Shown here: in pieces, positions 5,356-31,362 of the stretch
Layout: every line of letters begins with the position of its first letter
Position numbering within the stretch: the stretch's first letter is position 1
IMG/VR virus record: IMGVR_UViG_3300017527_000160
Coordinates: 35,916-99,915 of that record
Source: a virus
Direction: 5' to 3' (one strand)
Length of the DNA: 64,000 nucleotides
Translations under genes and position numbers: made by a program
Notes under the pieces: model-generated
The model's database searches: none
What the model was told of the DNA's origin: nothing
The model's input: the letters and a program-made list of their open reading frames with translations, nothing else

Positions 5356-5381
5356 ACATATGAGGTTTGGTAAACTTATAT

Positions 5382-5389
5382 TATTTTTG
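5382..5389 (+). promoter_or_regulatory. Bacteroidota-type -7 promoter box
   Basis: TATTTTTG 19 nt upstream of ATG 5409. Confidence 0.3.
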
Positions 5390-5408
5390 ACAAAGTAAAA
5401 GAAAAAAC

Positions 5409-8459: not shown

Positions 8460-11400
8460 ATGGCTGAAGAAAATAGCAGTACTCCTGTATCAGATCTGGA
8501 TAATGTAGATTCAAGTAGTTTTTTACCTAAAGGTTTGCCGCCACTGGAAATGGATCCCGAGTTATCTTCTTACTTAGTAGAACAAGGGGTAATAGAAGCA
8601 CCTACTGAACCTAGTGTTAAACCTGGTAGTGGTCAATCAATGCGTGATAGCTTGTTTGATTTTCAAACAGCTGACTTAGGTATTGCTACAGATCCATTCA
8701 AAATGGGTAAAGAGGTTCATGCTGATTTTCGTAACCCTCATAATCAGAATCAATTCTATGAAAGGTATGCTTCTCATAGTGAGTTTGAGAACTTAGGTTT
8801 CAATCCGTTCAGAGATAACGAAGCGCTGTATAATGAGAACTCTAATATGTTCGAGGAACTTGGTAGATCATTCGGTCAGTGGACTGGATTGGTAGGTCTT
8901 GGTTTCAAAGATGCTGCTGGCTTTGGGGATTTAACTGATAGAGATAATGCCGCAGAGATGGAACGTGCTATGGCTGTAGGTTCATCTTCTAAAGGTGGTT
9001 TTACTGGTTTCACTAATAACTTATTTTTAAACTCAGGATACACTGTTGGTATTATGGGTGAGCTTGCTTTGGAAGAAGTAGGAATGCTTGGTGTAGAAGC
9101 TGCTCTCGGTATAGGTACTGTAGCTACAGGTGGTGCTGCTGCTCCAGCATTAGCGGCAAACACTGGACTGATGGCTAGTAGAGCTGCCAGAGCTTTCGGT
9201 AAGATAAAGACCGCACTTGGTGCTAGTTACAGTTTGAGTAAACAGCTTGGTAATCTAAAAGACATTAACAAGGCTAGATCCATGTGGAGTAAAGGTCTTG
9301 GTAAAGCAGGAAAGATAATTAACCCTTTTGAAAATACTGTAGACCTTTATCGTAATAAAAGTAAACTGGATCATCTTAACAAATGGCAAAAGACATACAA
9401 AGGTTTTGCTGAGATGTATAAGGATGTTAGAAACTTCCGTTTGGCGTGGGGTGAAGGTGCTCTTGAAGGAGGTATGATTCAAAATCAAATGGAGCGTGAA
9501 CTCCTGGCTGATTTTAGAGCAGAGAATGGACGTGGTCCTAACGAAGAAGAAGGTCAGGAGATTATAGATACAGCAAGACGTGCGGGTGTTACAACATCTG
9601 TTATCAATATGCCAGTCATCATGCTGTCCAATAAACTTGTGTTTGATGGATTACTTGGTCGTGGTAGATTTAAAAATCTTTATGCTGATGTTATTGAGAC
9701 AGGTCATGCAGGAAAAATAATATTTAAGCCGGGTGTTAAAGGAGCGAAAGCTTATAACAAAATGGCTACAGGTCTACAAGGTAGATGGGACTATATAAAG
9801 AGCCCTCGAATGTGGGCTGCAGGTGCTGCGAAGTATGGTAAGGCAAACATTGCTGAAGGTCTTCAAGAGGTTTTTCAGGAAACGATAACTGGTGCTTCTG
9901 AGGATTACTATGGTGCCATGTATAGAGGTGATGCTAATCGTGGCGGATATATGTCTTCTATAGTAGGTAATCTTGTTAAACAAGTAGGCCCGCAAGGTCT
10001 TGAGACTTTCATGTCAGGGTTCTTGATGGGAGGTATGGTTGGTCCTGTCTCTACTGGAGTGGGTAACATAACTCAAGCTATCGGTGGTAACTCAGCAGGT
10101 TTTGCTGACAGTCGTGCGGGTAAAATTGGTACTGCTATAGGTAACCAATTTACTAAGATGAGTAAGGGTCAAGAAGCTTATCAGAAAAAAGTAGATGAGC
10201 AGACGGATCAAGCTACTAAAAGAAATACAAAGCTTGAGAAAGATATAGAAACACTGAATGAGTTCTATGAAGATCCTACAAAATACTTTTCACCTGAACT
10301 AGAAAACCTCGTATCGCAAAAGGCATACAAAGAAGCCATGGATGAGGCTGAAAAGAGAGGTGACAAAAGAATGTTCCATGATATGGCTGACAGTGCAGAG
10401 ACCAAGCATGTCATGACAGCCTTGAAGTATGGTAGACTAGATGGTCATATCACTAGAATGGAAGAGATGAAACAGTTCAGTGCAGAAGAATTTAAAACTC
10501 TGAACACAGAACTATCTCAAGAAGACTTTAATTTTAAAATAGATGCTTCAATAGATCGTGCTAAGAAGATTCAATCTACTTGGGACTATGCATCAAAGAA
10601 ATTTCCAAATCCTTTTACTCCGTATAAATATAGACCTGGTACAGATAAGTTCAAGGAAGAAGCTATGAAACAAGTTGTTTGGAATAATGCTATCGAAGAG
10701 ATGGTGTTCCAACAAGAAAGTTTTAATAGAGCCCTAGAAAGACAACAGTCTATTTATCAAAACATACATGAAACTGCAGGTTTAAAGAAGATGTCTACTA
10801 GCGATATCAATGTATTGTTTGATGAGCAAAGTGTTTTAAGTGAGATAGGGCTTTTAAAAATGGAGCTGGAAGGTAACGAAAATACTGTAGGATTAAAACA
10901 ATCAGAAGCTTTGACACCTGATATGAAGCAGATGATTGCTAAGAAAGATGCTAAACTTAAAGCACTCGAAGCATATGATAAAGCTTTAAAAGAATTTAAA
11001 AGTTCTAAAACTGAAGAGGTTGATGAACCTACAGTTAATGCTTTACATAAAGCATATAAAGAGTACATGTCTGTTATGGCAGAGCAAAGTGGTGAACACC
11101 TTAATGTAGATAAGCTTGATGCTTCTTTCGAGGCTTTGGCTGATTCACATTTGTTAACGGCTAGAGCAGGTGATTTGAACAGAGCTGTTAATATCCTATC
11201 AGACCCTAAGAACTTTCTCTCAATGGTTGATAGAAAGAATGCTCGAATAAAAGTTCTTTATGATAATAGAGAGGTTGAAATAAGAAAATCATTAGAGGAG
11301 TTCAGAAAATTAGCTGAGAAAAATGAAATGCTTAACAGGCTATACGACGAAGGTATGTTCTTCGATCCTAAAGATCTTGCTCTACTAGAGAGTGAAGGGA

Positions 11401-13589
11401 AGATGCCTGTAAACTTCTACTATGCTGATACAACAGATGGTCATAAGCAAGGTGAGGTTCTTAGAACATCTGCTGATTATGCTAAAGCTATTGGTATTGT
11501 AACCAAAGCTATGAAAGCTCAAGGTATTGATGTTGAGGATATCATCATAATGGAGCAGGATGCTAACGCATATACCTCACAGTCTCGTAGAAAATCAGCG
11601 GGTGATGCGAGAACGTATGTAGATCTAGCTCAAGAATTTGGTTTCGATCCAGAAAAGGATTCATCAGAAGTACCTCTAGTAGATGTACTGGAAGCAATTA
11701 TTGCAAATGAACATGGGTACAATACTGAACATGAGATAGCATTAGCTCAACAGTTACTTAAGAAAGCGGATTCAAAAGAGACTGTAACATTCTCTAGGAA
11801 GGAGAAGACTCCAGGTGCATACACTTCTGCTGGTGCTGTAGTTGATCCACGATACAGTTCAGATGAATATCATCAAGGAAGAACCGGTCATCCTATCGAA
11901 CATGTTATTCTCCATACTGAGATTAAACGTAGAGTCTTCGAGGCTACAAAAGGTGATGCTGATTTTAAGAAGAACATGACACGACTTTGGACTGAAGCTC
12001 GTACAGCATACGCTGAGTTATCACCAGAAGCACAAGCTGCTATGGACGGTGTTACACTTGACCTATTCCAAAACCTAGATTCATTCATGGCAGCAGCTAT
12101 GAGTAATCCTACGTTCCAAGAGTTCTTAGCTACAGTTCATACGAAAGTTGAGACTACAAAAAGCGTTTGGCAAAAATTCGTTGACGCTATAATGGCTCAC
12201 TTGAAAGGAGCTACATTAGGACACAACGGTACAGTATTGAATGCTGCTTTAGATTTAATAACAGCTAAGATCGAGGGTATTGGTGTTGCTCCAACTAAGA
12301 CAGCAACAGAGGCAGAGACAACCACTGCTCCAACTAAAACTACAGCAGAGACTAAAGGTATCGTAGCTAATACAATGCCTCCTAGTCAGATGAAGAAGGA
12401 TCATCCGGATCTATGGCAAACACTTGTTGATTTATACAAGGAACAGAATATCGATCTTATAAGTCAACCTGGTTCAATAGGTGACGAGGCTTTACTTCCT
12501 GGTTTTGAATCTATGTCTGATGAAGAGATTGGTAAGTCTCCACAGTTTGCTGCATACATTAAAGGACCGTGGCCAAAAGCATCTGCTGCTATTTATTCAT
12601 ATAATAAATCATTGGTTAAGCCTACAGTTGAAGTTCCGTTAGGAAGTACTGAGGATGTGAGTAATGAGGAGATAGATGAGTTTAAGAAATCTAAATTTGT
12701 ATCCCGTGCTCGAATAGTGAAGATGGCTGAGAAGCAGGAGAAAGGTACGCCTCACACTCTTCGTGAGAAGATGTTACTTAAAAATGATATCGTTCGTGCT
12801 GGGGTTGAACACTACCTGGACACTAAAGCTAAAAAACCACCAACAATTGTTACCGGTGAAATGAAAGAGCAGTTACGTGAGTTAGGGTTCTCTGAGAATC
12901 AAATCAAAACGTTACATGCTAGACCTGAAGAAGCTTGGAGATTAATCAATGAGGGTATCACTAACGATGAACTTAACGCAACAGCTCAATCAGCTGCAGC
13001 GACACCGTCTACTTTGAATAAATCAGGCGAATTGTTTCATGCAGAAATGGGAGCTATCCTTGAAGGCATATACGATTATCAAACTCTTGAGCAGGCTGAA
13101 CAAGAATTGGTTCACATCACAGAGACTCGTAGCGATGAGATGACTAATGCTGGTTTAACAGAAGAAGATTTTGAGGGTTGGATTGGAAAAGCCTTGCAAA
13201 GAATAGCATTTAATTTTACCTTTGAGGATATCCAAGTAGGAGAAGTTCTTATAATGGGTGGCGCATATAAAGTCCAATATAGAGTGGAACAAAAAAGCGG
13301 TAGTGAACTTTATGTAGAACCTGTTGCCGGTGGTAAAGGTACCTGGATAAAAAAGAACGAGATCCATGATAAAATTGAATACAGATATAACATAGCTATG
13401 AATGATCCGAGAGTAAAGTTTGATGAATCAGAACCTGTTACAGAAGAGGAGAAAGTATTCGCTGAAGAAACTATGGAAGCTACTGTAGAAATCAATAGTG
13501 CGGAAGCTATTAAAGAGGATTTAGAACAAGCAGGCACCATGACTGCAGCTGAAAGAATGGCAAAACTCAAGAACAATAAAAAGTGTTAA
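8460..13589 (+). CDS. Large virion ejection protein with Gly/Ala-rich hydrophobic segments and a degenerate zincin-like domain
   Basis: 1709 aa; hydrophobic GVEAALGIGTVATGGAAAPALAA and FMSGFLMGGMVGPV segments; ILHTEI...NLDSFMAAAMSNPTFQ resembles an inactivated zincin. Confidence 0.7.
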   Translation: MAEENSSTPVSDLDNVDSSSFLPKGLPPLEMDPELSSYLVEQGVIEAPTEPSVKPGSGQSMRDSLFDFQTADLGIATDPFKMGKEVHADFRNPHNQNQFYERYASHSEFENLGFNPFRDNEALYNENSNMFEELGRSFGQWTGLVGLGFKDAAGFGDLTDRDNAAEMERAMAVGSSSKGGFTGFTNNLFLNSGYTVGIMGELALEEVGMLGVEAALGIGTVATGGAAAPALAANTGLMASRAARAFGKIKTALGASYSLSKQLGNLKDINKARSMWSKGLGKAGKIINPFENTVDLYRNKSKLDHLNKWQKTYKGFAEMYKDVRNFRLAWGEGALEGGMIQNQMERELLADFRAENGRGPNEEEGQEIIDTARRAGVTTSVINMPVIMLSNKLVFDGLLGRGRFKNLYADVIETGHAGKIIFKPGVKGAKAYNKMATGLQGRWDYIKSPRMWAAGAAKYGKANIAEGLQEVFQETITGASEDYYGAMYRGDANRGGYMSSIVGNLVKQVGPQGLETFMSGFLMGGMVGPVSTGVGNITQAIGGNSAGFADSRAGKIGTAIGNQFTKMSKGQEAYQKKVDEQTDQATKRNTKLEKDIETLNEFYEDPTKYFSPELENLVSQKAYKEAMDEAEKRGDKRMFHDMADSAETKHVMTALKYGRLDGHITRMEEMKQFSAEEFKTLNTELSQEDFNFKIDASIDRAKKIQSTWDYASKKFPNPFTPYKYRPGTDKFKEEAMKQVVWNNAIEEMVFQQESFNRALERQQSIYQNIHETAGLKKMSTSDINVLFDEQSVLSEIGLLKMELEGNENTVGLKQSEALTPDMKQMIAKKDAKLKALEAYDKALKEFKSSKTEEVDEPTVNALHKAYKEYMSVMAEQSGEHLNVDKLDASFEALADSHLLTARAGDLNRAVNILSDPKNFLSMVDRKNARIKVLYDNREVEIRKSLEEFRKLAEKNEMLNRLYDEGMFFDPKDLALLESEGKMPVNFYYADTTDGHKQGEVLRTSADYAKAIGIVTKAMKAQGIDVEDIIIMEQDANAYTSQSRRKSAGDARTYVDLAQEFGFDPEKDSSEVPLVDVLEAIIANEHGYNTEHEIALAQQLLKKADSKETVTFSRKEKTPGAYTSAGAVVDPRYSSDEYHQGRTGHPIEHVILHTEIKRRVFEATKGDADFKKNMTRLWTEARTAYAELSPEAQAAMDGVTLDLFQNLDSFMAAAMSNPTFQEFLATVHTKVETTKSVWQKFVDAIMAHLKGATLGHNGTVLNAALDLITAKIEGIGVAPTKTATEAETTTAPTKTTAETKGIVANTMPPSQMKKDHPDLWQTLVDLYKEQNIDLISQPGSIGDEALLPGFESMSDEEIGKSPQFAAYIKGPWPKASAAIYSYNKSLVKPTVEVPLGSTEDVSNEEIDEFKKSKFVSRARIVKMAEKQEKGTPHTLREKMLLKNDIVRAGVEHYLDTKAKKPPTIVTGEMKEQLRELGFSENQIKTLHARPEEAWRLINEGITNDELNATAQSAAATPSTLNKSGELFHAEMGAILEGIYDYQTLEQAEQELVHITETRSDEMTNAGLTEEDFEGWIGKALQRIAFNFTFEDIQVGEVLIMGGAYKVQYRVEQKSGSELYVEPVAGGKGTWIKKNEIHDKIEYRYNIAMNDPRVKFDESEPVTEEEKVFAEETMEATVEINSAEAIKEDLEQAGTMTAAERMAKLKNNKKC

Positions 13590-13593
13590 TACT

Positions 13594-16500
13594 ATGAAGT
13601 GTACAATTGTAGGAGCTAACCAACGCGATGTGCGTGTGGTTGTCGCAGGTGATATTTTCGATTTGATGAAAGCAGGTAAGCCTGTAGATGTGAAAGCATT
13701 GTCATTGAATATGTACAACGCAATGTACGACGCAGAACAAAAGAACAACACGGAAGCCTTAGCATATGCAAGGCTTGTTCCTTTTATGGTGCAACAGTTA
13801 ATGGGTGTTGATGCAACTATCTTAAAGCATGTTGTGGAATCAAAGGTGGATCTTGGTGAACTTGCCAATACACAGATTGCTGCTCAAGATGCTGAGACAG
13901 GTTTAAAGTATGTTGAAGAATGGTTAGGTGTTCGTGAGAATGGATTGAAAGAATCATTAGCTGCTGCTCAACCAAAGAAAGCAAAAAAAAAACCTGGTAG
14001 ACAAGCAAAGCTTTTTGCTGATGAGGTTGTTAAGCTTGGTGATACTGTACAAATACTTAGTGGTAAAGGTAAAGGTGAGGTAGTTACTGTTACTGAAGAC
14101 CATGGTGATAAGGTAAGATTATCCAATGGTGTACTTAGAAAAAAGACTAGAGTTAAATTGAAGGCACAAACTTCTGTGCCTGTTGCTGCTCCTGTTAAAT
14201 TAACAATTCGACAAAAAGTTATAAGAAGTTTAGAGCTTGACTTGAAGCAATCAGATGAGAGCAAGTTCCCAATGTCTGCTGCTGCAAGACGTAAAGTACA
14301 AGCTCAGTTGGATCAGTTGAAAGCTGAAGAAGCTGGTAAAGCGCCTGTCAAAAAGAAAGACGGTTGGTCAAGAGAAGATATCATGGAGGATGCTCATAAT
14401 CAACATCAAGCTGGTGTTGATGATTGGTATGCTAATAAGAAAAAACAAATAGCTGAGGAAGAGGCTGTTCTATCAACTGGAAGCGAAAACTTAGAAACTG
14501 GCGCACCGGAAGGTGATCCTGGTGTAGGACCGACACCTATTTCTGTTGAAGAAGTTATGGCACTGCCTGTAGAGGAGTTCACTAGATGGTTCATCACTCA
14601 CGGATTAATAAGTGGGAACGAGACTGGTTTAAATCAACGCCCTTATATAGGTGGAAGATCGCCTGCTGATTTACGAGCTGTTGTTAATAGAATTAAATTG
14701 GGTAAGACTCATAAGAAGGATGGGACTATATTGAAAAGCGTAGCTGACTTCTATGCGGACATGGCTGAGATCCAAAAGAATAATGATGAGTTCCCGATGA
14801 TTAAAGGTACTGGTGGTAAGAATGATGGACGAACAGGTTCACCACCACTTAGTGCAATTATACAAAGTGGATTGGATATGGCCAAAGGTGGTCCAGTTGA
14901 TGAAGTAGATGAGGATTCAAAAGAAGAGGTAACACCTAAACCACGTAATAAGAATTATTTACAAGGAGCACTTAAGAGTGTTATCGATGGTGTTGTGAAA
15001 GCTTTCAACGCTCATGCCCCATCATGGATGACTACATCTGGAAATGAGACTGGTTATAATGTGGGTGAAGTTAGTGCAAGGATACCTACCGCAGCAAGTA
15101 AAGCAGCTTATGCTGCACAACGTACGATCTTAAGATTGATGGAAGATGGAAACATCCAAGACAGTAAAGATCTCAAAGTTAACGGTAGGACAGGTGTATT
15201 CTTGACTGCTAAGTTTGCTGACGGTCGTATCAGAATGACTCTTACAGATAAGAACGGTGATGCTATTTTATTTGACGGTAACGATCAGCCTGCACTGGAT
15301 GGTAATCCTAGAGAATATGGTATGCGTGCCGTAGACAAATTCTTCGATAAGGAAGGTAATGTGAAGACAACAGGGAAACGTTTCAATGAGATGGTTGATG
15401 CTTTGATTAACGCTAAGCCTCACCTTACTAGAACAAGAGCTGTGAATATTCTTAAAGCAGAGGTTGAACATATCCAAGCTGTTAGAGAATACATCAATAA
15501 GGATCAAGAGAATAACTCTCTTGAATTTTCAATAAGCGGTGGTTCTCTTGGTTATATCCAAGTAGGATTTTCACCTAAAGAACTTACATCAGTTAGTAAA
15601 CTGAGCGATAAGGTTACAATGAAGCTGTCCACTAAAGCCGACAACATCGGTGAGGAAGGGCATGTGTATGCCACTTCGGATGAGATGGAAGGTGACTGGA
15701 TTCCTATCGAACGACCAGGTCTTAGAGATACACCTTTTGCTGATGTTGTTGAATCATTATTGTTTGATGAGAACTTAACAGATAAGGATGGTAAGCTCTT
15801 GAATGCTGTAGATAGAGCAAAGCACATAGATAAATATGTCGGTACGAACAAGGAGAGTGAGATACTATTTGATTATGATATCGGTACTAAGAAAGTTAAA
15901 CGACTTGTTATAGGTAATACTGTGATCATCGATGTTGAGAAAGGTATCAGAGATTTAGAGGTGGGTAAGATTGCTTATAAGCAGTTGTTAGCAAAGAATA
16001 ACAAGGGTACTAGTTTCCCAACACTTAAGATGCATGTGAATGCAGATGCTTTAGCTAGAAGAGATTTCATGTCTGTAAGTATAGCGGACGGTGTTGTAAC
16101 TACAGAAGGGAAAAATACCAGAGTGCATATGGCTGAGCAAGGGTTCATGATCCAGACCCCTGATGTTGCATCTGACGGTATGATCAGAAAGGTTAATGCA
16201 TACTTCACTTTTAAGTTAAGTGAGAAAGGTGACCAAGCGTTAAATGGTAAAGCTGTTGCTGAAGAAGAAGCAAAGATTGCTGAACAGAATACTGAAGAGA
16301 TTGAAGAGAACGAGGATGATGCTTGGCAGAAAGCAATGGATGCTAAGATGAAAGCGCTTCAAGATAAAAACAAACCATTGGATGAAGATGAAGATGATCG
16401 TTTATTCAGAAGCTTGGATGTAAAGAATCAGAATCGAGCAGCTACTGCTGAACAGATAAAAGAAGCTAGAGACTGGTACGAGAAACACCCTCTTAGTAAA

Positions 16501-22500: not shown

Positions 22501-25449
22501 CAAGCGGGTGTTCCAATTGATGAAGCTGTATACTTTGTTTCTAATCCACTGGTTAGAGAATATGTTAAGGAGCAGAAGCTTGCTAACAGTACATTCGGTA
22601 TGGCTCTTGGTACAACACCTACAATCGACGTTGTTGATGCTGAAGGTAATAGTAGAGTAGTTCCTGCGCCACAGATGGCTCAGTTCAAATCTAAAGGTAG
22701 AGTTTTATCACGTCACTTCCAAGGTGTTACTGATGGTACTCAGAGAACCATAAATGAACTTGGTAGAGAAAGGCAAGCGAATGCTAATGATTATAAAGGT
22801 AGAACTAAATTTGATAAAGAAGAGTTAAAGAAAGCTGCTAAAAGTAAAATGGGTGCTCGTGAAATCACTGAATTCGATAAGGATGTGTTTGTTCACTTCC
22901 TTGAGATAGAGAACATGAGTAAAGCTGTTAAGGATATGAAGATGAGAACTAATGTGGATACATCGAAAGATGCTACATTGTTCGAGGCTCAGGATAGAAT
23001 TACTATGATTGAACAGATCAAGAGAGACGGTAAGTTCCCTGCAGAGATGGTTGATAAGATCCGAGTGGATTCACCTATCGCTAGTTTCTTTATACAAGAC
23101 TTCCAAATCGATTTACTTGGCGATGCGTTTCCACTAAGGAACCATGAGGTAATTAACAACTTCATCCAAGGTGTTGAGTTCGACGATTGGAAAAACACTT
23201 ATGGTCTAAAAGATAAAGCAATCATCAACTGGAAATCAGATATGATAAACTATATCTTCCAGAATGAACTTAAGTATTTTGATGTCGATAAGATAACTCA
23301 CTATAAAGGTAGAAGATTAACTTCAAGAACAGCTGCTCAAGCAACTAGTAAGGTTAACTTAGGTACTGAAACAGCTCCTAAAAGTGGTAATGTAATAATT
23401 GATGCAGTTAAAGGTAGAGAACCTCAACCTGGAGCAATAACAGCATTCAGAACTAAAGGTAAAACAGAGCAAAATATGATCGATGCTCTTAAGGATGATG
23501 CTGTTGGAAATCCTTTTGGTCCTTATGGGGCTATAAAAGAAGAGACTGCTGTATCAGTTACTAGATTCTTAGATTGGTTAGAAGGTAAAGCAGATACAAA
23601 TGTAATGCAAGATTATAGAAATGCAATTCTTGCTAAACAAAATGAATTAGCTAATAAAGACATTTATTACTATAAAGATTTAAGCAGACCTTCTCATGCT
23701 ACAGCTTTAGATTACTTTTTAAATAAATCAACACAACAAACCAGTGATGCCGGAATGGCTGTTGAAGATGTATTCTTAACTAGACATGGTGCGTATGCCA
23801 AAGACGGGAAGATGTATATTGATAAAGCTCAGTTAAAAACTGACTTTGCTAATAAAACTTATACGCAAAAGCCTATCACTCAAGAAGAATATGCTAAAGA
23901 AACACACGAAGCTGTATCTCAAGGTGAGACACCTACACACATGCGTCTTACTGCACCAGTATCAAACTTGGCGTTTAGTACAGAGAATGAGTATATCCAG
24001 TTTGTGATGGAAAGAGAATCTTTGAGAGAGGCGAGACCTTTATCTAAGTTACTAAGTTCGGAAAAAGATTGGAGTGAATCAAACTCAAAGTTTAAAGCAG
24101 TTGTTGATCGCTTCATGTATGAGAACAAGATCAAGGTGGGTCAAAGTAAAGACGCACATGCTGAATGGGTTGTGGCTATGGCTTATGAAGTTTATCTTAG
24201 AGATGTCGCATTGGCTAGAACTAATAACCACTGGCACATGTTCCGTGGTGAAGACACATATGCTCATGAGTTTGCTAGAATCAAACGTAACTATCCTGTT
24301 TTATCAACGCATTTTTCTTTGATGAATGCTCTTGATTTTAAAGGGAGTATGGGATGGAAAAACCTTGCACTGAATCAAAGTGAACTTGATGGTGATCAGA
24401 CTAATGTGTTACATGAGAACTTACAAGACTTAGCTGACAGCAGTAAACTACAAGAGCTTCTACCAGAGGCTTCTCAAATGGAGATCGATGAGATCAAAGA
24501 ACATTTTGAGAACTTCCATACAGTAGCATTCTTGCAATCAGGTATGAGTCAGGGTAGTCGATTCTCAATGACTCAGTTTGTATCGCAAGATCAGATGATA
24601 AGGTTGATGGAGAAACCTCTACAAAATCTTAACACGTTACTCGCAAGTAACAACCCGCTTAAGCAAGTGTTCTTAGAGGAGTATCATCATAGATGGGTGC
24701 AGCAGAATTCCGCTGCTAGTAGAAACACAAGAATTCGTGGTAAGAATATGAATAACAATGTTACATTATTAGATAGTAACACGATTGGTCAAGGTGTTCA
24801 GACTACTGAACCAGCTCAACAAAGAATAACAACTATCGGGGCTCAACCGGCTTTGATCAGTGAGCGAGGTTACTCTGGGTTTAATATCTCACAAACAAAT
24901 GCTGAGAAGTATTTAGAGAAGTATCCTAATTTTACTTTCGTATATGATTTTGCTATCGATAATCAAATGGGTGCTGCAGGGGCTAACAGTAACAGAAACT
25001 TTCACGGTAAAGGTCCTAACGCAATAGGTCTCCCTACATTGTTTAAGTATTCACCTGGTAATGATAAAACCGGAACACGACCTGATCTCATAAGAGATGT
25101 TGACGGGAAGGTGAGTGACAAAGTGAAGGAAGTTATTGATCATGCTATCGATCAGATGGTAGATAATATGAACAGCGGACAGACGTTGCAATTCGATAGA
25201 GAAGGATACGGTCAGTATATGATTGAATCAAAAGACGGTGCTCCTCGTTTAGCACCTCAAACTTTCTTATATTTGTCGAAGCAGTTGCTTGAAAGAGTTC
25301 AGTTCGTTAACCCTGGTTATTTGAAAACTCAATCAGGTAAGGTGGCGACACAAGCAGGTCAAGCGGTCACTGATGCTTCTATCTGGCAAGAGGTTCAGAA
25401 TGAAATGAGTGATGATGCAGTGAGAGATTTTATAAAACAATGTCTATAA
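13594..25449 (+). CDS. Virion-packaged DNA-dependent RNA polymerase (crAss-like two-barrel type) with N-terminal zincin domain; polyvalent protein
   Basis: 3951 aa; RIPVQG followed by SGADFDVDK (catalytic DxDxD at 21337-21351, matching the DFDID-type motif of crAss-like RNAPs); HEAWH...EEHLAEEF zincin at 16609 onward. Confidence 0.88.
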   Translation: MKCTIVGANQRDVRVVVAGDIFDLMKAGKPVDVKALSLNMYNAMYDAEQKNNTEALAYARLVPFMVQQLMGVDATILKHVVESKVDLGELANTQIAAQDAETGLKYVEEWLGVRENGLKESLAAAQPKKAKKKPGRQAKLFADEVVKLGDTVQILSGKGKGEVVTVTEDHGDKVRLSNGVLRKKTRVKLKAQTSVPVAAPVKLTIRQKVIRSLELDLKQSDESKFPMSAAARRKVQAQLDQLKAEEAGKAPVKKKDGWSREDIMEDAHNQHQAGVDDWYANKKKQIAEEEAVLSTGSENLETGAPEGDPGVGPTPISVEEVMALPVEEFTRWFITHGLISGNETGLNQRPYIGGRSPADLRAVVNRIKLGKTHKKDGTILKSVADFYADMAEIQKNNDEFPMIKGTGGKNDGRTGSPPLSAIIQSGLDMAKGGPVDEVDEDSKEEVTPKPRNKNYLQGALKSVIDGVVKAFNAHAPSWMTTSGNETGYNVGEVSARIPTAASKAAYAAQRTILRLMEDGNIQDSKDLKVNGRTGVFLTAKFADGRIRMTLTDKNGDAILFDGNDQPALDGNPREYGMRAVDKFFDKEGNVKTTGKRFNEMVDALINAKPHLTRTRAVNILKAEVEHIQAVREYINKDQENNSLEFSISGGSLGYIQVGFSPKELTSVSKLSDKVTMKLSTKADNIGEEGHVYATSDEMEGDWIPIERPGLRDTPFADVVESLLFDENLTDKDGKLLNAVDRAKHIDKYVGTNKESEILFDYDIGTKKVKRLVIGNTVIIDVEKGIRDLEVGKIAYKQLLAKNNKGTSFPTLKMHVNADALARRDFMSVSIADGVVTTEGKNTRVHMAEQGFMIQTPDVASDGMIRKVNAYFTFKLSEKGDQALNGKAVAEEEAKIAEQNTEEIEENEDDAWQKAMDAKMKALQDKNKPLDEDEDDRLFRSLDVKNQNRAATAEQIKEARDWYEKHPLSKHIPFKTMFEQMNKDGVAQWTVEGITLFKGADYSDLYHEAWHGFTQTMLTKQQKTDLYKELGRKVGSFKDYNGRMVSFAAANEKQLEEHLAEEFRSFMLKGKKATTAGPKQLSFFKKILAILKALFNNSHIDQVIMDAKFDSKVSELFEKMRVGNLAGYTFSQANANFGKLNQGITAIPGNEIKEGVESLNYQTSAELNNMMDAYLAEYVTVMNQGLDSAGQARVKKLNTELQDTENLNQAEQKAKRDELDALLNNDAASYKYSSLIVSDPDVLTTGYFYAQGKFQRLKASLSAKVKKETDPVQKASDLKDLKMIEFALDQFGNIDDIYSNQSADGTVAYGLIGYHMQRSKLFQDSRPTQEEIADEQKGPVAKRAFDRAGNESSLKEMASAEILYLLKTLPQVEKNDEGEWVPVTNRFDVNELAPFQTTWNRMVRATENIQDFDQMYDKLQEEAVKFPVLEELLKRMGDPHSSKVNTEHTLWTQLFKTFSKSRVPLIQMTVEQQGRGVNVKWEARVGEAFNADYAIGRQWQSMFTGAEPSEFIKNTIEGNYMDLAAIIKKFPHHSAASANPFEFFHAIGMPLSDNPEIRNELKANLGTYGPGHFHDEIMKLKGAGTRVERLDQITEEVNGRYKDLMKLEARYSDVFSSFMVTNAEGNTQFEHTLNNSMTMMVNAVNNSIDYNDMVSKPHLAHLDINKNPFAKSSLWLKAMFNLDGSPDINSIGKDGKSNHNPNYGERRVTKSGDFVTLRLTNLSGVLAKTMGDETGTGVSSAGADEYSKLIMDLQLSYSGMPELMRHADKGTSFTITIDGPLDIDSQPTDNYVPIGDFAAGGRFREKTVDRLSPHIVAEMSRMRILRGMTNMDGTPKMDVPFDVDYIMNGQQFVAFEDVLSDGTKAALKKIAFSEENIEDAVEAMRETINADLTKYFDKQYEEVNKKFDDAFFLADNIQEDMSRKGITGNKREAAIRSYVHNSWIHNIESIAVIYGDLAQYNHAKEGFHKRNAGGGSTGDIYRYDKTMAKNINDNYYKSSYAAKHANRLGITERRYFGGTMSTAIIEDQEIRSVYMDEYEEAFGEDAYKLGNYAKQNEGDAQGLITFDSYRELKVAEGTWSNEQDALFKKIVNGEKVSSRDVAQFFPVIKAQYWGPLANDTALPVMAFHKYSLFPMTPSVIKGKKMEKLHDKMVKEGIGYVTFESGSKVGTISKTAKVKKNEKTGEIEKVSRGYDKVYTEGEALDPNIMDPKMEDADGNYVEHFTKNDIHLHYLKNQLEIHDERKGNVIFSTQLRKLIEDGLMANGVPSDFMMKESLGGSKVVAERKAEWAKIEAKWDTMSPEAQQKTSKKYGLLKDYEKNINRLTQYAKEKLLEEINWQEIVDPKTGEKSLKGDMKNLLELVRSELVRQDLGQHSIDFIQTNTDGTIKHDLSLSLNVEQIEKLLNAMMVKKLIKQKVNGEGLIQVAATLMEDMAAEQGRDFRNPTEEDLAKWGSKDLPHYRPNQGPNGETTAAKVKVALAGDFRHLLKMTSVQELAKEQRIIDIAKAKGGSWTAAHVALNELIKDEEWLNEGRNREMVSMIGVRIPVQGLNSMEFMEVYEFLPEEAGSVIVPPTEIVTKSGADFDVDKMTVMMPNILSLNGSVELATSDLATKPKETLKEERDALVQKISDIREEHKEARKDKETRFTAEEREILDDTKSRIRDEQRKIKSLKKQWLDTSRQYKSPRVIKRMKALEESIDAAQFKKMSLEETEDMYYNTLPGDRLKHILSEPQAELAIIRRQLASLTDKPIQNDIMNSIRAVLELPDNFKPLVMPNSTELLTGQDNDGLAQEMEPHVVDTNKFDNVHSTKRYQGPKGDRISATRVLEVGYNLEKHMKNAIGKQTLALGAVDNTYNTLFNRIGAYMNPRVHSEAQYDAARRQEKKDKKKLTQKQKDVLKEYSEQRIMLNHNTMDIEGSDAISLSHINDAAGTPISDVVNQLINGWVDIAADAFVFNLQGNKEISPVLLFMVQAGVPIDEAVYFVSNPLVREYVKEQKLANSTFGMALGTTPTIDVVDAEGNSRVVPAPQMAQFKSKGRVLSRHFQGVTDGTQRTINELGRERQANANDYKGRTKFDKEELKKAAKSKMGAREITEFDKDVFVHFLEIENMSKAVKDMKMRTNVDTSKDATLFEAQDRITMIEQIKRDGKFPAEMVDKIRVDSPIASFFIQDFQIDLLGDAFPLRNHEVINNFIQGVEFDDWKNTYGLKDKAIINWKSDMINYIFQNELKYFDVDKITHYKGRRLTSRTAAQATSKVNLGTETAPKSGNVIIDAVKGREPQPGAITAFRTKGKTEQNMIDALKDDAVGNPFGPYGAIKEETAVSVTRFLDWLEGKADTNVMQDYRNAILAKQNELANKDIYYYKDLSRPSHATALDYFLNKSTQQTSDAGMAVEDVFLTRHGAYAKDGKMYIDKAQLKTDFANKTYTQKPITQEEYAKETHEAVSQGETPTHMRLTAPVSNLAFSTENEYIQFVMERESLREARPLSKLLSSEKDWSESNSKFKAVVDRFMYENKIKVGQSKDAHAEWVVAMAYEVYLRDVALARTNNHWHMFRGEDTYAHEFARIKRNYPVLSTHFSLMNALDFKGSMGWKNLALNQSELDGDQTNVLHENLQDLADSSKLQELLPEASQMEIDEIKEHFENFHTVAFLQSGMSQGSRFSMTQFVSQDQMIRLMEKPLQNLNTLLASNNPLKQVFLEEYHHRWVQQNSAASRNTRIRGKNMNNNVTLLDSNTIGQGVQTTEPAQQRITTIGAQPALISERGYSGFNISQTNAEKYLEKYPNFTFVYDFAIDNQMGAAGANSNRNFHGKGPNAIGLPTLFKYSPGNDKTGTRPDLIRDVDGKVSDKVKEVIDHAIDQMVDNMNSGQTLQFDREGYGQYMIESKDGAPRLAPQTFLYLSKQLLERVQFVNPGYLKTQSGKVATQAGQAVTDASIWQEVQNEMSDDAVRDFIKQCL

Positions 25450-25458
25450 TATAACAGT

Positions 25459-28400
25459 ATGTCTAGTTGTCCAAATAAAAGTTTTAAAACAGATAGTAAC
25501 CAAGAGAAGAGCGACTGGGCTCTTTTAGAAGAAGGTGTAGGTTACTTTGAAGCAATGCGTGATTACCTTGAAACAGGTGGTGAAATCAGAACACCTGAAC
25601 AGGTTAAAGATAAGCTTGCCATGAGGAAAGAAGTACCAGGATCTGCAATGAGCCCTGAATCAACAATTCCTTCAGGTGAATTCACTCTTGCTGATATAGC
25701 TAATGATCAACTTAAACAGACTGAGGACTTCGGTATAAACACTGATCAGTTAAAATCTACTAGAGCAATCGAGCTAGCAAACAAAATGTCTGCTGCTTTA
25801 GGTATCCAGTATGAGTTGGTTACTGCGCAACAGGCGGCACTGATCACACAGAATGCTAAGAACCCATGGAATGGAGAAGGAGCTTTCTTTGTTGGTGGTA
25901 AGGTTTACTTTATCCAAGAGAAGATGACCAGTGACATGGTGTTGCATGAGTTCGCACACCCGCTGGTTCGAGTAATCTCTAAAGAAAACCCTGCACTATT
26001 TGATAAGCTTTATAACGACATAGCTAATACAACAGAGGGACAGGAAGTAATACAAGCAGTGACCGATCACTATAAAGCGCTTGAACCTGGTTCAGCATAC
26101 TTTAAGGAAGAGGTAATTGTAAAAGTACTGGAGAAGCATGGGGCACAAAAACTATCGAAGGAAAAGGTTCAGGGACCGTTTGCAAAAGCTATTGCTGAAT
26201 TCCTATTTGCGATTAAACAACTTCTACGTAAGAGGTTCGGTAAGCATATCAAAATTTCTAAACTTTCTACAGACACTTCTTTAGATGAGTTAGCTGACAT
26301 ACTTACTGCTGGAGATAAGATCTCTATTGATACTGAGTTGATTTCTGAGGAGGACATCGTAGCGTATAACAAAGAGGCAGAAGCTGAGGTGAACAATGAT
26401 TTGAATACTGTTCGTAATCAGGACATCCAAGCTACGGTGAATGATTTCTACGATAAGATCACGGATCATATGCAGGAGTTGATGCATAATGAGAACTATG
26501 CTGAGTTAGCGGATGTTCTAGTAGACAGCAACCAGGTTAAGATGTACCAAGCAATGAAGGGTAATCTTAAACCTCATCATAAGGCAATGATGAGTAAAGC
26601 TAACGCAACTCTGGAATCTGCTGAGGAGAGTAGAAAAAGGGTGAATGCCTTGACAAATACTTTGTTCCGTTTAGAGGATGTGATGAAGAAGATGTATGAG
26701 CATACTAAAGATATTGCTACTTATCCAGATACACAGGATAACATGCAGAAGGCTTATTACTACAAGAAGTTTACAGATCACTGGCAAGAGTTCATGACTG
26801 ACTTGAAAAATACGTTGGAGAATGAAGCCAACGGTGTTGATTCAAGATCGGAGATAGTAGCCCTAGTGAATGCTATAGAATCAGATATTAGTAAGACCGG
26901 TAAGATAATCGATAAGATGTATGCCGACGGATCAAGAGATGCTTTATACGAACAACTAGTTCCTATGAATAGAGCCATCTCTGAAAGATATGAAGAGCGT
27001 ATAGCTAACTTGAGAGAGAAGGGTGCATCTCCAGAACGTATAGATAAAGTATTTACAGAGTATCATGGTGTCAACCAAGCTGACAAGAAGATCATGGATA
27101 CTTTAACTGCCAAGTATAAGGCAGGTACTATAACTACTACTGAACAGAATACACTTGATCAACTCGTAGTAAAAGGAAAGAAAGGATTATCTATCAGTAA
27201 GGATAAGATAGAACTACTACTGAAAGGTAGAATGGGTGATGCTAACTGGTTTAGTTCATACCTAGAAGGATACTTATATAACTCTGACCCTATTGTGGGT
27301 GGTTTGGCTTTGTTTGTTAAGAATGCTACGAACGATGTGATGATAGTAGCGCAACAAAAATACAATGACTTCGCCAATGATATCAGAGATGACCTTAAGG
27401 CTGCGGGATACAATCCAAACCGTGTAGGTAAACTTGGTAAGGACGTGGGTCGTAAAGATAAAATTGCACGTATCAATGAGGAAGGTATCCTTGAAGAAGC
27501 TGAGGTATGGTCTTTCAAACAAGAGTTTGGTAATGGTTTCCGTTATGACCAAGATGCTCTCAAGAAGACAATGCAGTTAGCTGAGGAAGCTCATGAGACT
27601 AACAATACACCTGAGACTAAAGCGGCTTTTATAAAGGCTGAGAAAGAGTATAAGAAATTTGAGCGTGACTATATGCATCAACAATTCACTGATGCATACT
27701 ATGCTCGTGAGGAGCTGTTTGAAGATGACCCGGTCGGGGAAGCTGCTGGTTTCGCTAGGAGAGAAATACTAGATGATATGCAAGAGCTTACCTCTCACGC
27801 TAAGACTCAGTCTGACCACCTAGAGATTGCCGATGAGCTTGATGCTATATGGCGTAAGTATCGTTTACTGCATAGTAACTATGACCACAACGGTAAGCTC
27901 AAGACTGGTGATGATTTGGAAATAGCTAAGAGACTTCGTACTTATAGACAAGAGTCACAAGAGCTGCACGAGTATACTGTAAGAAAGGGTGCGTTCGAGA
28001 ATGCATACTTTAACTTTCAACAGGAACTTAGAAATCAAAACATAGAAGAGAATACTACCGATCCTGAGTCTGAGTGGAACAAGAAGATGGACATCTGGAA
28101 GAAGCGTAACACAAGAACGGCTGTTAAACCTGAGTACTATACTGAACGTACTAGGATCCTTGAGGGGATAAAAGAAATCTTAAAGAAGATTGATGATACT
28201 GAACAAAAGGAACTTGACCAAGGTGTTATCTGGGAAGAGATCTTAGATATCGTTGCTCCATATAAGGACGATGATAAGCAACCTATCGGGACAGAGATGA
28301 AGGAGAGTAACATCGATGACATACGAGAGCTGCAGTTGAAATTAGAAGAAATTAAAGAGAAGAGCATTCAACGTTCTGGATTAACTAGGAAAGAAAGTTC

Positions 28401-31362
28401 TGAGCTTAACCAAATGTTTCAAGACAAGAAAGCAGGTAAACCTTACGATAAGGATTACATGAGTGAACTGAATAAAAAGAGGACTGAAAAAGGTTTAAAC
28501 AAATGGGACATAGCAAAACTTAATGGGTACTATGCTCAGCTTGGTGCAATGTCTACTAGAGGTGCTACTGAATATTATACCGACATGGTTAACGAGATGA
28601 TGTCTACTTTGGACATTTCTGATTTAAAAGAACTTGATGGTATGGATAACCAAAGTGTAGATCAGTTGTTAGATCCTGCTACTCTGGATAAACTTTTTTC
28701 TCAAGGTGAAGCAGGTAAAACATTTGAATTATGGTTTGAAAAGAATCACATTAGGAAAGAAGTTTACAATAAAGAAACTAAAAAGAATGAGCTTAAGTAT
28801 GAGCGTCTATATGCGTGGAACGTAGTAAGACCATCTGATACAAGCATGATGGAAACCTACGAAGTCAAAGACATTACAGGTAATGTGATTGATATAATAG
28901 ATGGTATTCCTTCACAATCTTATTATAACCGTACGGTAAAAGCTGAGTATCATACTAGAGCTATACCAGGTGTGACTAAGAATAACCAGGGTCGTTGGAT
29001 GCCTAAGAGTGTGAAAGCAGGAGCAGTCGATGATAAGTATGTGGATCAAGATTATGCTAAGATGAAAGCTGATGATACTCCTATGTATAGGTTACTTGAA
29101 AAGCTTAAGAAGCATCACTTGGCCAACCAAGAGGGTCTACCTTATAATAGTAGACTGGGTCTTGATATGCCTAGGTACAGACAAAGTGAGATGGAATTCC
29201 TACAGAATACTACACTCGGTGCTGAGACCAAGAAGAAAAAGAATGCGTTAACGATGTTGATGAAACGTGCGAAAGGTTTTATGACTGGTGATCCAGATGA
29301 TGCTGCCGATGGAACGATGAATCATGATACTAAGATGAACTTGGTTAGAGCAGATATGTTCGATAACGACATGACTGATATTCCAATCTCTGGTTTATAT
29401 AATATTGAAGTGGACGAAGTGTCGACTGATATCACTCTGAGTATGATGAGGTATATGATGTCAGCTGAACGTCAGAAGCAACTTGTGAAGATCTCTCCTG
29501 TTGTAAGAGCAATCCAAGAGACTGTGAAAAGCAATACGGTAAAGGATCCCACCAAAGTGAGAAAGAGAAATTTCAAGAACGGAGTATTGAGTTACTTAGG
29601 TAAAGATAAAAACGTTAGGGAAGCTGCTATAAACAATCTTATAGAAAGAGAGTTCGATGGTAAGACTAAGACAGGGCTCGGATCAGAGACTGCATTCTTA
29701 ACTAACTTCTCCAACTTACTTTTCAAACGTGCTTCCTTCACGTTCTTCGCACTGAATATTCCTTCAGCGCTTAAGAATAGTTTAGGTATGAAGTTCCAAT
29801 CGATGATTGAGGCTGCGGGTGGACAACATGTTGACCAATGGTCTCTGCAGAAAGGAAACGGCTGGGCTTATAAAGCTATGCAGGAACTTAGCTTTGGAGG
29901 TAACCTTAGAACTAAGGGCCCTAAGAGTCACAGGCTACAACTATGGGATGTGTTTGATTTTGCTCAAGGGCGATTTGAAGAGAAGTTTGCCACTGAGATG
30001 TCACGAAGTATAGGACAAGATGTAGTAGGTATGAGTTGGTTATACTCTCCTCGTAAATGGGTTGAACTTCAAGCGGTCGCTCAACTCGGAGCTGGGATGT
30101 TACATAAGAAAAAAGTAACACAGATTCAGGAGGATGGGACTACTAAGGAAATTCCGTACATAAATGCTTTTGAAACTATCGATGGTCAGATTCGATTGAA
30201 GAAAGGTATCGATGCTCGATATGATGTTGATGCAAAAATACACGCAGTAAAACCAGGAGATACCCTGGAAGCAATCGCTGCAAAATTCAACATACCTGTT
30301 ACAGAGATAGAAGCTGCCTTCAGAGGTGTTACTATAGAAGGTAAACTTAGGAAAGCAGAAGCTATAGAAGACAAGCGTATGCAAGAGCTTGATGTTGTAC
30401 AACAATCAATAGATCTACTGGATCCTGCATCACCAGCTTACGAGGATGGTCGTACAGTCCTAATGGACAAAACAGACGCTATCAATAAAAAGTATGACGC
30501 ACAACTGGAGAAAGATGCTTCTATCAAGATTGATAACTCTGAGTTCAAGTTCATGAAGAACAAGATGCATCAGGTACAGAATAATATGGGTGGTGCTTAC
30601 TCTAAGTTTGATCAGCCAGAGGCACAACGTTATCTTGCATTCCGTTTCATAACTTATATGAGAAGATACTTCACTACTATGGCTACTAACAGGTGGGCAA
30701 AGAAAAGACTTAACCCGGGAATGGGTGGTTCGAGTGAAGGTTTCTATATTACAACTGTGAAAAGTTTAATCGATATCGTTAAGACTGGAGGAGCGGGTAT
30801 CAAGTTTGCTAGTAAAGAAGAGAAGACAGCATGGTTGAAATTCGGTACTGAGGTTGGTATGTTGATGTTAACTACAGCATTAACTGGATGGATCTTTGGA
30901 TGGGATGACGATGATGATCAAAGATATGATAAGCTTAGAGAAAAGTCTGGGCCAATGAACTTGCTTGGTTTAACTGCTGATGATCCGAACAGACCGTTTG
31001 AATTGATGGGCTACCTAGAAGTACATGCGCTACATACACTAATGCAGGTACGTGCAGAGAATGAACAGTTCAATTTACTTACAGGTGGTATACATCAGTA
31101 CAACTCGTTACTTGATATTAAGTCAGTGGCGTTCGGTCCGACAACAGATTCATACGTGCAGATGTGGGATGACCTTAAGAAGATTGTGACTAACGATCCT
31201 AAAGCATACTACACTAGAAACGTTGGACCATACGAATGGCAACAGAAAGGTGGTTCTAAGTTTATGACTCACTTTGCTAAGACATTCGGTATGACTGGTT
31301 CGTCATTAGATCCTGCACTTGCAGTACAGAACTTCCAATCGTATCAAGCTAAAGTAAGATAA
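25459..31362 (+). CDS. Large virion ejection protein with N-terminal zincin (HEFAH) and a LysM-like insertion
   Basis: 1967 aa; VLHEFAH...KEEVIV at about 25945; HAVKPGDTLEAIAAKFNIPV at 30241; hydrophobic segment near the C-terminus. Confidence 0.75.
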   Translation: MSSCPNKSFKTDSNQEKSDWALLEEGVGYFEAMRDYLETGGEIRTPEQVKDKLAMRKEVPGSAMSPESTIPSGEFTLADIANDQLKQTEDFGINTDQLKSTRAIELANKMSAALGIQYELVTAQQAALITQNAKNPWNGEGAFFVGGKVYFIQEKMTSDMVLHEFAHPLVRVISKENPALFDKLYNDIANTTEGQEVIQAVTDHYKALEPGSAYFKEEVIVKVLEKHGAQKLSKEKVQGPFAKAIAEFLFAIKQLLRKRFGKHIKISKLSTDTSLDELADILTAGDKISIDTELISEEDIVAYNKEAEAEVNNDLNTVRNQDIQATVNDFYDKITDHMQELMHNENYAELADVLVDSNQVKMYQAMKGNLKPHHKAMMSKANATLESAEESRKRVNALTNTLFRLEDVMKKMYEHTKDIATYPDTQDNMQKAYYYKKFTDHWQEFMTDLKNTLENEANGVDSRSEIVALVNAIESDISKTGKIIDKMYADGSRDALYEQLVPMNRAISERYEERIANLREKGASPERIDKVFTEYHGVNQADKKIMDTLTAKYKAGTITTTEQNTLDQLVVKGKKGLSISKDKIELLLKGRMGDANWFSSYLEGYLYNSDPIVGGLALFVKNATNDVMIVAQQKYNDFANDIRDDLKAAGYNPNRVGKLGKDVGRKDKIARINEEGILEEAEVWSFKQEFGNGFRYDQDALKKTMQLAEEAHETNNTPETKAAFIKAEKEYKKFERDYMHQQFTDAYYAREELFEDDPVGEAAGFARREILDDMQELTSHAKTQSDHLEIADELDAIWRKYRLLHSNYDHNGKLKTGDDLEIAKRLRTYRQESQELHEYTVRKGAFENAYFNFQQELRNQNIEENTTDPESEWNKKMDIWKKRNTRTAVKPEYYTERTRILEGIKEILKKIDDTEQKELDQGVIWEEILDIVAPYKDDDKQPIGTEMKESNIDDIRELQLKLEEIKEKSIQRSGLTRKESSELNQMFQDKKAGKPYDKDYMSELNKKRTEKGLNKWDIAKLNGYYAQLGAMSTRGATEYYTDMVNEMMSTLDISDLKELDGMDNQSVDQLLDPATLDKLFSQGEAGKTFELWFEKNHIRKEVYNKETKKNELKYERLYAWNVVRPSDTSMMETYEVKDITGNVIDIIDGIPSQSYYNRTVKAEYHTRAIPGVTKNNQGRWMPKSVKAGAVDDKYVDQDYAKMKADDTPMYRLLEKLKKHHLANQEGLPYNSRLGLDMPRYRQSEMEFLQNTTLGAETKKKKNALTMLMKRAKGFMTGDPDDAADGTMNHDTKMNLVRADMFDNDMTDIPISGLYNIEVDEVSTDITLSMMRYMMSAERQKQLVKISPVVRAIQETVKSNTVKDPTKVRKRNFKNGVLSYLGKDKNVREAAINNLIEREFDGKTKTGLGSETAFLTNFSNLLFKRASFTFFALNIPSALKNSLGMKFQSMIEAAGGQHVDQWSLQKGNGWAYKAMQELSFGGNLRTKGPKSHRLQLWDVFDFAQGRFEEKFATEMSRSIGQDVVGMSWLYSPRKWVELQAVAQLGAGMLHKKKVTQIQEDGTTKEIPYINAFETIDGQIRLKKGIDARYDVDAKIHAVKPGDTLEAIAAKFNIPVTEIEAAFRGVTIEGKLRKAEAIEDKRMQELDVVQQSIDLLDPASPAYEDGRTVLMDKTDAINKKYDAQLEKDASIKIDNSEFKFMKNKMHQVQNNMGGAYSKFDQPEAQRYLAFRFITYMRRYFTTMATNRWAKKRLNPGMGGSSEGFYITTVKSLIDIVKTGGAGIKFASKEEKTAWLKFGTEVGMLMLTTALTGWIFGWDDDDDQRYDKLREKSGPMNLLGLTADDPNRPFELMGYLEVHALHTLMQVRAENEQFNLLTGGIHQYNSLLDIKSVAFGPTTDSYVQMWDDLKKIVTNDPKAYYTRNVGPYEWQQKGGSKFMTHFAKTFGMTGSSLDPALAVQNFQSYQAKVR

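Follow-up and report, generated by a model that had tools for sequence, protein, structure and literature searches.

Paired cysteines at the facing ends of giant cargo proteins in a crassvirus-like phage point to a probable head-to-tail link between consecutive gene products

The window analyzed here is a stretch of 64,000 nt, spanning positions 35916–99915 of the 99,915-bp virus record IMGVR_UViG_3300017527_000160 from IMG/VR. Its region 8460–31362 contains three consecutive open reading frames (ORFs) on the plus strand, each starting at the first ATG following an in-frame upstream stop, which code for giant proteins that we designate A (8460..13589, 1709 aa), B (13594..25449, 3951 aa) and D (25459..31362, 1967 aa). 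Their computed translations contain only four cysteines (Cys) in 7,627 residues, all of them at the ends by which neighboring gene products face each other. A, the first member of the putative chain and without any recognized domain, has a Cys only as its final residue (Cys1709, codon TGT at 13584..13586, tail ...KLKNNKKC); B, the middle member, has them only at positions 3 (TGT, 13600..13602, head MKCTIV...) and 3950 (TGT, 25441..25443, tail ...VRDFIKQCL), the latter preceded by a short predicted helix; and Cys4 is the sole Cys of D, the last member (TGT, 25468..25470). The outward-facing ends, namely the N-terminus of A and the C-terminus of D, have none. A first-pass annotation of this DNA had claimed, from translations read by eye, that Cys occur only at the facing termini among about 7,600 residues and that the two outward ends lack them, and the recount (A1709, B3, B3950 and D4) bears out both points.

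The Cys content differs sharply between compartments of one and the same particle: it is 1.10 % in the products of the minus-strand replication genes, 3.14 % in the external tail proteins and 0.11 % in the cargo block. At the rate of 1.1 % found for the replication genes, 7,627 aa should contain ca. 88 Cys, with a Poisson probability of ca. 2e-32 for four or fewer, and the chance of four Cys landing at most five residues from exactly the four facing ends is ca. 1e-11.

Judging from gene content, the genome is crassvirus-like, with the cargo block A-B-D placed after the tail genes and a replication module on the opposite strand, although the relation is distant. Matches to PHROGs families were obtained for the terminase, portal and major capsid protein, with the portal showing 21–25 % identity to crassvirus portals across 82–97 % of its length. 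As in g067-g066-g065 of Cellulophaga phage phi14:2, A, B and D come in this order and a strand switch follows. The tblastn matches of B are phi14:2 g066 and RNA polymerase (RNAP) genes from gut crAss phages. B also aligned with PDB 6VR4, the structure of g066 (phmmer E 7.5e-21), in such a way that the motif GADFDVDKM (21331..21357, plus strand) faces GSDFDIDKM; this is the catalytic DFDxD motif, with D2582, D2584 and D2586 invariant in 47 homologs. B is therefore predicted to be a crAss-type, two-barrel virion RNAP of the phi14:2 gp66 family. With the portal, tblastn, alignment and 6VR4 evidence, the labels “RNAP” and “crAss-like” that had been given in the first pass turned out to be correct. 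By position and pattern, A is judged an ortholog of phi14:2 g067 and of gp47 of Bacteroides phage crAss001, and D shares position and motifs with phi14:2 g065 and crAss001 gp49.

The terminal Cys are nearly the sole Cys in ca. 300 homologs of A, B and D. Nearly all of the 85 homologs of B (22–70 % identity, 2,357–4,984 aa) contain exactly two Cys, at positions 3–6 and −1 to −6, and nearly no internal ones; in the full alignment C3 and C3950 are invariant columns, like the catalytic Asp residues. Exactly one Cys, situated in the last nine residues, occurs in 96 of the 98 homologs of A, none of which has an N-terminal Cys and which together contain two internal Cys in 177,575 aa. For D, a single Cys at positions 2–6 was found in 116 of 120 homologs, within a conserved head M-x-x-C-P-N in which C4 is invariant and the conservation of P5 and N6 is 90 % or higher; none of the 120 has a C-terminal Cys, there are 14 internal Cys in 250,121 aa, and the four exceptions look like truncated gene calls. 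An exhaustive profile search identified further cluster representatives of D, with an N-terminal Cys in 125 of 136 and 49 internal Cys in 262,516 aa. In alignments of D-head and B-tail fragments, the Cys and Met1 were the sole invariant columns. The pattern holds at protein identities of 22–30 %, with variable offsets and intergenic distances, the Cys of chain members lying 0–9 residues from the ends, and the facing pairs were also conserved when orthologous triplets were checked. This conservation in homologs indicates that the terminal Cys are under selection.

We then compared loci that differ in the number of chain members. A scan of IMG/VR with a profile of B matched 325 loci, 79 of which were retrieved as B plus flanks of up to 10 kb, 77 of them non-redundant. 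In these 77 loci, Cys are present on both sides at 143 out of 143 junctions, no C-terminal Cys occurs in the 73 complete last members, and there are 31 internal Cys in 548,345 aa. Four loci have four chain members, and the extra protein has a Cys at both ends in each of them, whether it is situated between B and D, as in L017 (754 aa), L032 (574 aa) and L060 (739 aa), or between A and B, as in L057 (602 aa); these extra proteins showed no similarity to A, B or D and matched no Pfam family. An apparent junction without adjacent Cys in locus L053 is false, being caused by an in-frame stop inside B and not by a true protein end. It consists of a single in-frame TAA (L053:13111–13184) after which the frame continues, and sequencing error, a pseudogene or read-through are all possible.

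Fusions show the converse behavior. In the gut Suoliviridae cr55_1, cr4_1 and cr118_1, A and B are fused into proteins of 4,491–4,946 aa that lack an N-terminal Cys and keep the C-terminal one, opposite a D head of the form M-[SI]-I-C-P-N; the fusion of cr55_1 has Cys at 4026 and 4548 only, and hence none where the two are joined. That of cr108_1 joins A to the N-terminal part of B, and the unfused B/D junction retains its pair (...NLCK / MANVCPN). In crAss002, B and D are fused, A retains a Cys at −2, and the head of B is MSC if translation starts at Met33. The fusion junctions of the gut phages were placed only roughly, from BLAST segments. The Cys pair is thus absent from the fused junctions, with the remaining pairs kept, and is present at each extra junction, as became apparent when cases with shifted fusion points were checked; no B+D fusion was found among the best 150 of 2,983 representative matches to the D head. 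Overall, the number of terminal Cys is twice that of real protein junctions, which favors pairwise links between neighbors over a metal node of four Cys, homotypic bonds or anchoring elsewhere. Two gene models from these phages deserve a comment: the annotated start of crAss002 gp33 (L005:11657–24394) probably precedes the true one by 32 codons, given that a start at Met33 yields the head MSC that is typical of the family, and the RNAP gene of cr108_1 is broken by a non-coding gap of 290 nt (L006:17824–18115), probably an intron.

The cargo blocks of the cultured crassviruses phi14:2 and crAss001 have the same gene order as the window, a homologous RNAP with DFDxD and an identical terminal-Cys rule, in spite of the distant relationship, also seen in the portals, and of the far larger size of B in the window (3951 versus 2180–2412 aa). 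In phi14:2, Cys are found at 1797 of g067 (the last residue), at 3 and 2179 of g066 (2180 aa) and at 3 of g065; in crAss001, at 2339 of gp47 (2341 aa), at 5 and 2404 of gp50 (2412 aa), which has one more internal Cys, and at 5 of gp49. The gene for crAss001 gp47 lies on the strand opposite to gp50 and gp49, and the pattern is therefore not a DNA or mRNA signal, or one of translational coupling, at the gene boundaries. Proteins of types A, B and D have all been detected in the virions of phi14:2 and crAss001, and both the activity of the RNAP and its presence in the virion are documented in the literature on these two phages. Some phages fuse the three proteins into one huge protein (bioRxiv 10.1101/2020.03.07.982082). 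The fused forms described above, A+B in Suoliviridae and B+D in crAss002, have the same order of modules, with a peptide bond where the window has a Cys pair; theirs is a permanent link through the backbone, with no Cys at the fused junction, whereas the link proposed for the window would be reversible by reduction.

A bond of this type is known from cyanopodophage A4 (Anabaena phage A-4L), whose pre-ejectosome, solved by cryo-electron microscopy (cryo-EM), contains a disulfide between Cys1715 of gp27 and Cys5 of gp26, with the C-terminal helix of gp27 sitting in a cleft of gp26 (PNAS 2025, PMC12002296). The ejection proteins of A4 are oligomeric, with 5 or 10 copies, and its authors reported this single bond without drawing a general rule (PMC12002296). 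In the A-4L genome we found a single Cys in each protein, residue 1715 in gp27 (1717 aa) and residue 5 in gp26 (1114 aa). As in the window, these are large internal proteins from adjacent genes that are free of Cys but for the facing ends; however, A4 has two members instead of three or four, has no RNAP in the pair, and is a T7-like phage of 42 kb from another family. The likeness is one of mechanism, possibly reached by convergence. Phage N4 provides a different comparison, because it also ejects a giant virion RNAP (gp50) together with helper proteins, although this polymerase is unrelated and T7-like. Its ejected proteins (vRNAP, gp51 and gp52) contain zero Cys, terminal or internal, and so they are not chained by disulfides. 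A Cys-free state thus seems to be the baseline for proteins that leave the capsid, with terminal Cys as an added feature, and against this baseline the terminal Cys of crassviruses stand out as selected. In translocated A-B toxins, one interchain disulfide joins the chains outside the cell and its reduction in the cytosol after translocation frees the active part; these proteins are unrelated to those in the window, their chains are cut from one precursor instead of being encoded by separate genes, and no virion is involved.

The Cys rule and its behavior under gene splitting and fusion are confirmed by these comparisons. In our opinion, the probable explanation is that the proteins dock onto each other at each junction and that a disulfide locks this contact outside the cell, generating one linear A-B-D thread, in which the bonded pairs would most likely be Cys1709(A)–Cys3(B) and Cys3950(B)–Cys4(D). 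A, B and D would be packaged cargo or ejection proteins linked head to tail in gene order, with one contact per junction. During assembly, the C-terminal tail or helix of each protein would dock onto the N-terminal head of the next, and the paired thiols would become oxidized after the particle exits the reducing cytoplasm. The product would be an unbranched “pseudo-polyprotein” of ca. 7,600 residues, the counterpart of the real fusions seen in other crassviruses. Without internal Cys, wrong cross-links, loops or branches would be prevented in proteins that have to unfold in part on their way through the tail, for which constrictions of less than 50 Å have been described in crAss001; the position of the Cys within 10 residues of the ends implies that a cross-link would leave short stubs only. 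After ejection, the reducing cytoplasm of the host could sever the links, setting the polymerase free. It is plausible that particles of this kind contain disulfides, since crAss001 virions have mapped ones, in the tail and at the portal vertex, and the tail proteins of the window phage are rich in Cys. The first-pass annotation had proposed that the C-terminal Cys of one gene product bonds with the N-terminal Cys of the one that follows; this pairing agrees with every comparative test that was run, but its disulfide nature in crassviruses, as well as a role of the bond in packaging, ordered ejection and release, is what we infer from them.

Several observations weigh against this interpretation. 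A disulfide of this type has been seen by cryo-EM in A4 alone, and the cargo is not resolved in the atlas of crAss001. The A4 precedent is an analogy, since no relation in sequence or fold to the window proteins was detected: BLASTP with gp26 and gp27 gave only E > 0.05, hhalign of the D profile against both gave a probability below 1 %, and Foldseek searches with models of the D head and the B tail returned no significant match in PDB. A few internal Cys do occur in gut members. Virions are assembled in a reducing cytoplasm and the gut is an oxygen-free habitat for its crassviruses, and consequently oxidation must come late, or else the contact may stay non-covalent. AlphaFold2 (AF2) models showed a short helix directly ahead of the Cys in the last 400 residues of B, and coil in the first 20 residues of D, but the confidence in these end segments is moderate (pLDDT ca. 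60–69), which might be what is expected from segments that need a partner. We also examined the net charge of A tails and B heads, which are inversely correlated over 63 loci (Spearman −0.67), a suggestive value only: when relatedness was taken into account with a tree of B cores, there were four independent pairs, two or three of them concordant and none discordant (p ≥ 0.25), and in the window itself the A tail (+5) and the B head (+1) are both basic. Charge complementarity was consequently discarded as support.

Other roles for the terminal Cys have to be considered. It is unlikely that the facing Cys form a clasp other than a disulfide, that is, a shared metal site of two thiolates plus other ligands, or a set of conserved docking contacts. 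Two Cys per junction are equally compatible with such a clasp, which would also agree with assembly in the reducing cytoplasm and with the His found beside the Cys in many B tails (..KHC, ..NHC). Nevertheless, K, S or N predominate at position −1 of the B tail, and no second or third ligand is conserved, the Cys alone being invariant in the fragment alignments; moreover, two thiolates alone make a poor metal site, and the sole solved example, that of A4, is a disulfide. Bonding to other partners, either homotypic (A-A, D-D, or rings and polymers of B) or as an anchor to the portal, the capsid or other cargo, does not account for first members with only a C-terminal Cys, last members with only an N-terminal one and inserted members with both, nor for fusions that remove exactly the two facing Cys and keep the rest. 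The bond in A4 is, besides, heterotypic and joins the C-end to the N-end of adjacent gene products. We deem this alternative quite unlikely, even considering that the copy numbers of A, B and D could accommodate it, that ejection proteins are oligomeric in other podophages, as in A4, and that inter-subunit disulfides exist in other parts of the crAss001 particle.

A chemical or regulatory role without linking, such as a redox switch to activate the polymerase, a modification site or a processing nucleophile, appears very unlikely. The activation of the virion RNAP leaves room for such a role, and the HExxH motifs of B and D, described below, could process termini; yet a role of this kind predicts neither a strict pairing across junctions, nor its loss upon fusion, nor a Cys at each end of inserted proteins that are unrelated. 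All four Cys are encoded by TGT, always near a start or stop codon, as might result from chance, a gene-calling artifact or a nucleotide signal at the gene boundaries, but the comparative data refute this possibility, which retains a negligible probability: to the low chance of placement calculated above is added the persistence of the pattern at 22–30 % identity with variable offsets and intergenic distances, and in crAss001 despite the location of gp47 on the other strand. Two further candidates were rejected. A single Zn(Cys)4 or Fe-S node joining all four Cys does not agree with their scaling at two per junction, with six in loci with four proteins and two when a pair is fused; and intein or native-ligation chemistry was discarded because there are no intein-sized segments flanking the Cys and the N-terminal Cys are at positions 2–6.

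Returning to the disulfide-locked thread, it could be part of a broader scheme that we consider possible, but propose only tentatively. Crassviruses and, by convergence, A4-like cyanophages might share a plug-in rule, by which any protein with a Cys at most ca. 10 residues from both ends would be spliced by disulfides into a linear ejection thread. The thread would be packaged whole, with a fixed stoichiometry, drawn through the tail from N to C in the manner of a single polypeptide, and then divided into its working parts by thiol reductases of the host. The order in this thread, a redox-cleavable substitute for a polyprotein, would tentatively be an anchor protein, inserted cargo modules, the RNAP and the peptidase/LysM protein.

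Crassviruses, which include the most abundant viruses of the human gut, have to store and deliver a giant RNAP and its two partners. The rule of one Cys pair per junction leads to a concrete hypothesis on the stoichiometry of these proteins, the order in which they are ejected and their release, which can be tested at low cost on phi14:2 and crAss001; it would explain why the genes are fused in some lineages and split in others, and suggests that inserted cargo modules can be recognized from sequence alone by the Cys at both ends. It also extends the single structural observation from A4 to a rule for a whole virus order. The words “cysteine” and “disulfide” are both absent from the text of the phi14:2 preprint, and that of the crAss001 atlas does not contain “cysteine” and mentions disulfides seven times, all in relation to tail assembly and gp57 and none to cargo. 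Searches of full-text literature retrieved nothing on terminal Cys in crassvirus cargo, although most subscription journals were outside their coverage and the absence is thus unproven. The first-pass annotation knew of no description of a chain of this kind, which stands for crassvirus cargo in the papers searched but not in general, because the gp27–gp26 disulfide of A4 was published in 2025. The terminal-Cys rule in crassvirus cargo may be new, and the head-to-tail disulfide between two ejection proteins of A4 was known before (PMC12002296).

Besides its Cys head, D contains a motif HEFAH (HExxH; 25945..25959, plus strand), with H163, E164 and H167 invariant, in a putative zincin-like metallopeptidase domain, and such a domain has been reported in phi14:2 gp65. 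The AF2 model of residues 94–263 of D aligned with anthrax lethal factor (VIA-align Z 7.8, 145 residues, rmsd 3.6) and with Pro-Pro endopeptidases (Z 6.4–6.5), although these alignments are overall middling (Z 6.4–7.8 over 139–159 aligned residues) and the domain had no Pfam match. A peptidoglycan-binding LysM motif is found further downstream in D (30244..30315, plus strand; PF01476, 26.5 bits versus a cut-off of 20.9). B has its own zincin-like HExxH, additional to that of D, in the N-terminal third (HEAWH, 16609..16623, plus strand), situated ca. 1,000 residues from the N-terminus and conserved, with E1007 and H1010 invariant. Apart from LysM in D and a sub-threshold DUF7831 in B, Pfam searches with A, B and D found nothing else, and there was no match in PHROGs for these three proteins or for the three upstream ORFs. 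Likewise, no cultured phage matched the A/B junction in blastn or D in tblastn, and IMG/VR yielded nothing when scanned with a single sequence, be it the first 600 aa of B or those of D. Leptolyngbya phage Lbo-JY46, the best portal match, was evaluated as a model system and discarded, because no B-like polymerase was found in it.

The size and architecture of the chain proteins vary widely among relatives. In one of them (L080:7386–26531), B is 6,381 aa long and contains a second RNAP core, with residues ca. 5080–5904 matching again residues 1854–3001 of B, and zero internal Cys. Homologs of B and A (P0002–P0080, P0143–P0169) contain variable extra domains, AlkB-like (PF13532), NADAR/DUF1768 (PF08719), helicase (PF13604/PF13245), NUDIX (PF00293) and PD-(D/E)XK (PF12705), resembling in this the “polyvalent” injected proteins. 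Many homologs of D have an insert of 500–1,400 aa right after the first 20–70 residues, and the Cys head stays at the extreme N-terminus.

Cys are also found in other proteins of the phage. The external tail-module proteins, encoded upstream of the window (G000:C1:16971–33469; loci L002 and L003), contain 3.1 % Cys overall, and some of them 4–9 %. Just upstream of A, a cargo protein of 1015 aa (window 5409–8456, plus strand) has exactly two Cys (128 and 134), within a motif F-[KR]-N-C-[VI]-D-x-x-K-C-G-G (5766–5828) that is conserved, position included, in 14 of the 26 complete ORFs found upstream in related loci; similar close pairs exist in crAss001 gp45 (390, 398), phi14:2 g069 (369, 378) and cr111_1 gp030 (224, 232), and the pair may constitute a small disulfide loop or half of a metal site. 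Finally, a low-complexity virion protein of 892 aa (window 320–2998, plus strand) has four Cys, all near the N-terminus (13, 16, 47 and 57), and this head (residues 8–62, at 341–505), with the arrangement C-x-x-C ... C ... C, looks like a small zinc ribbon.

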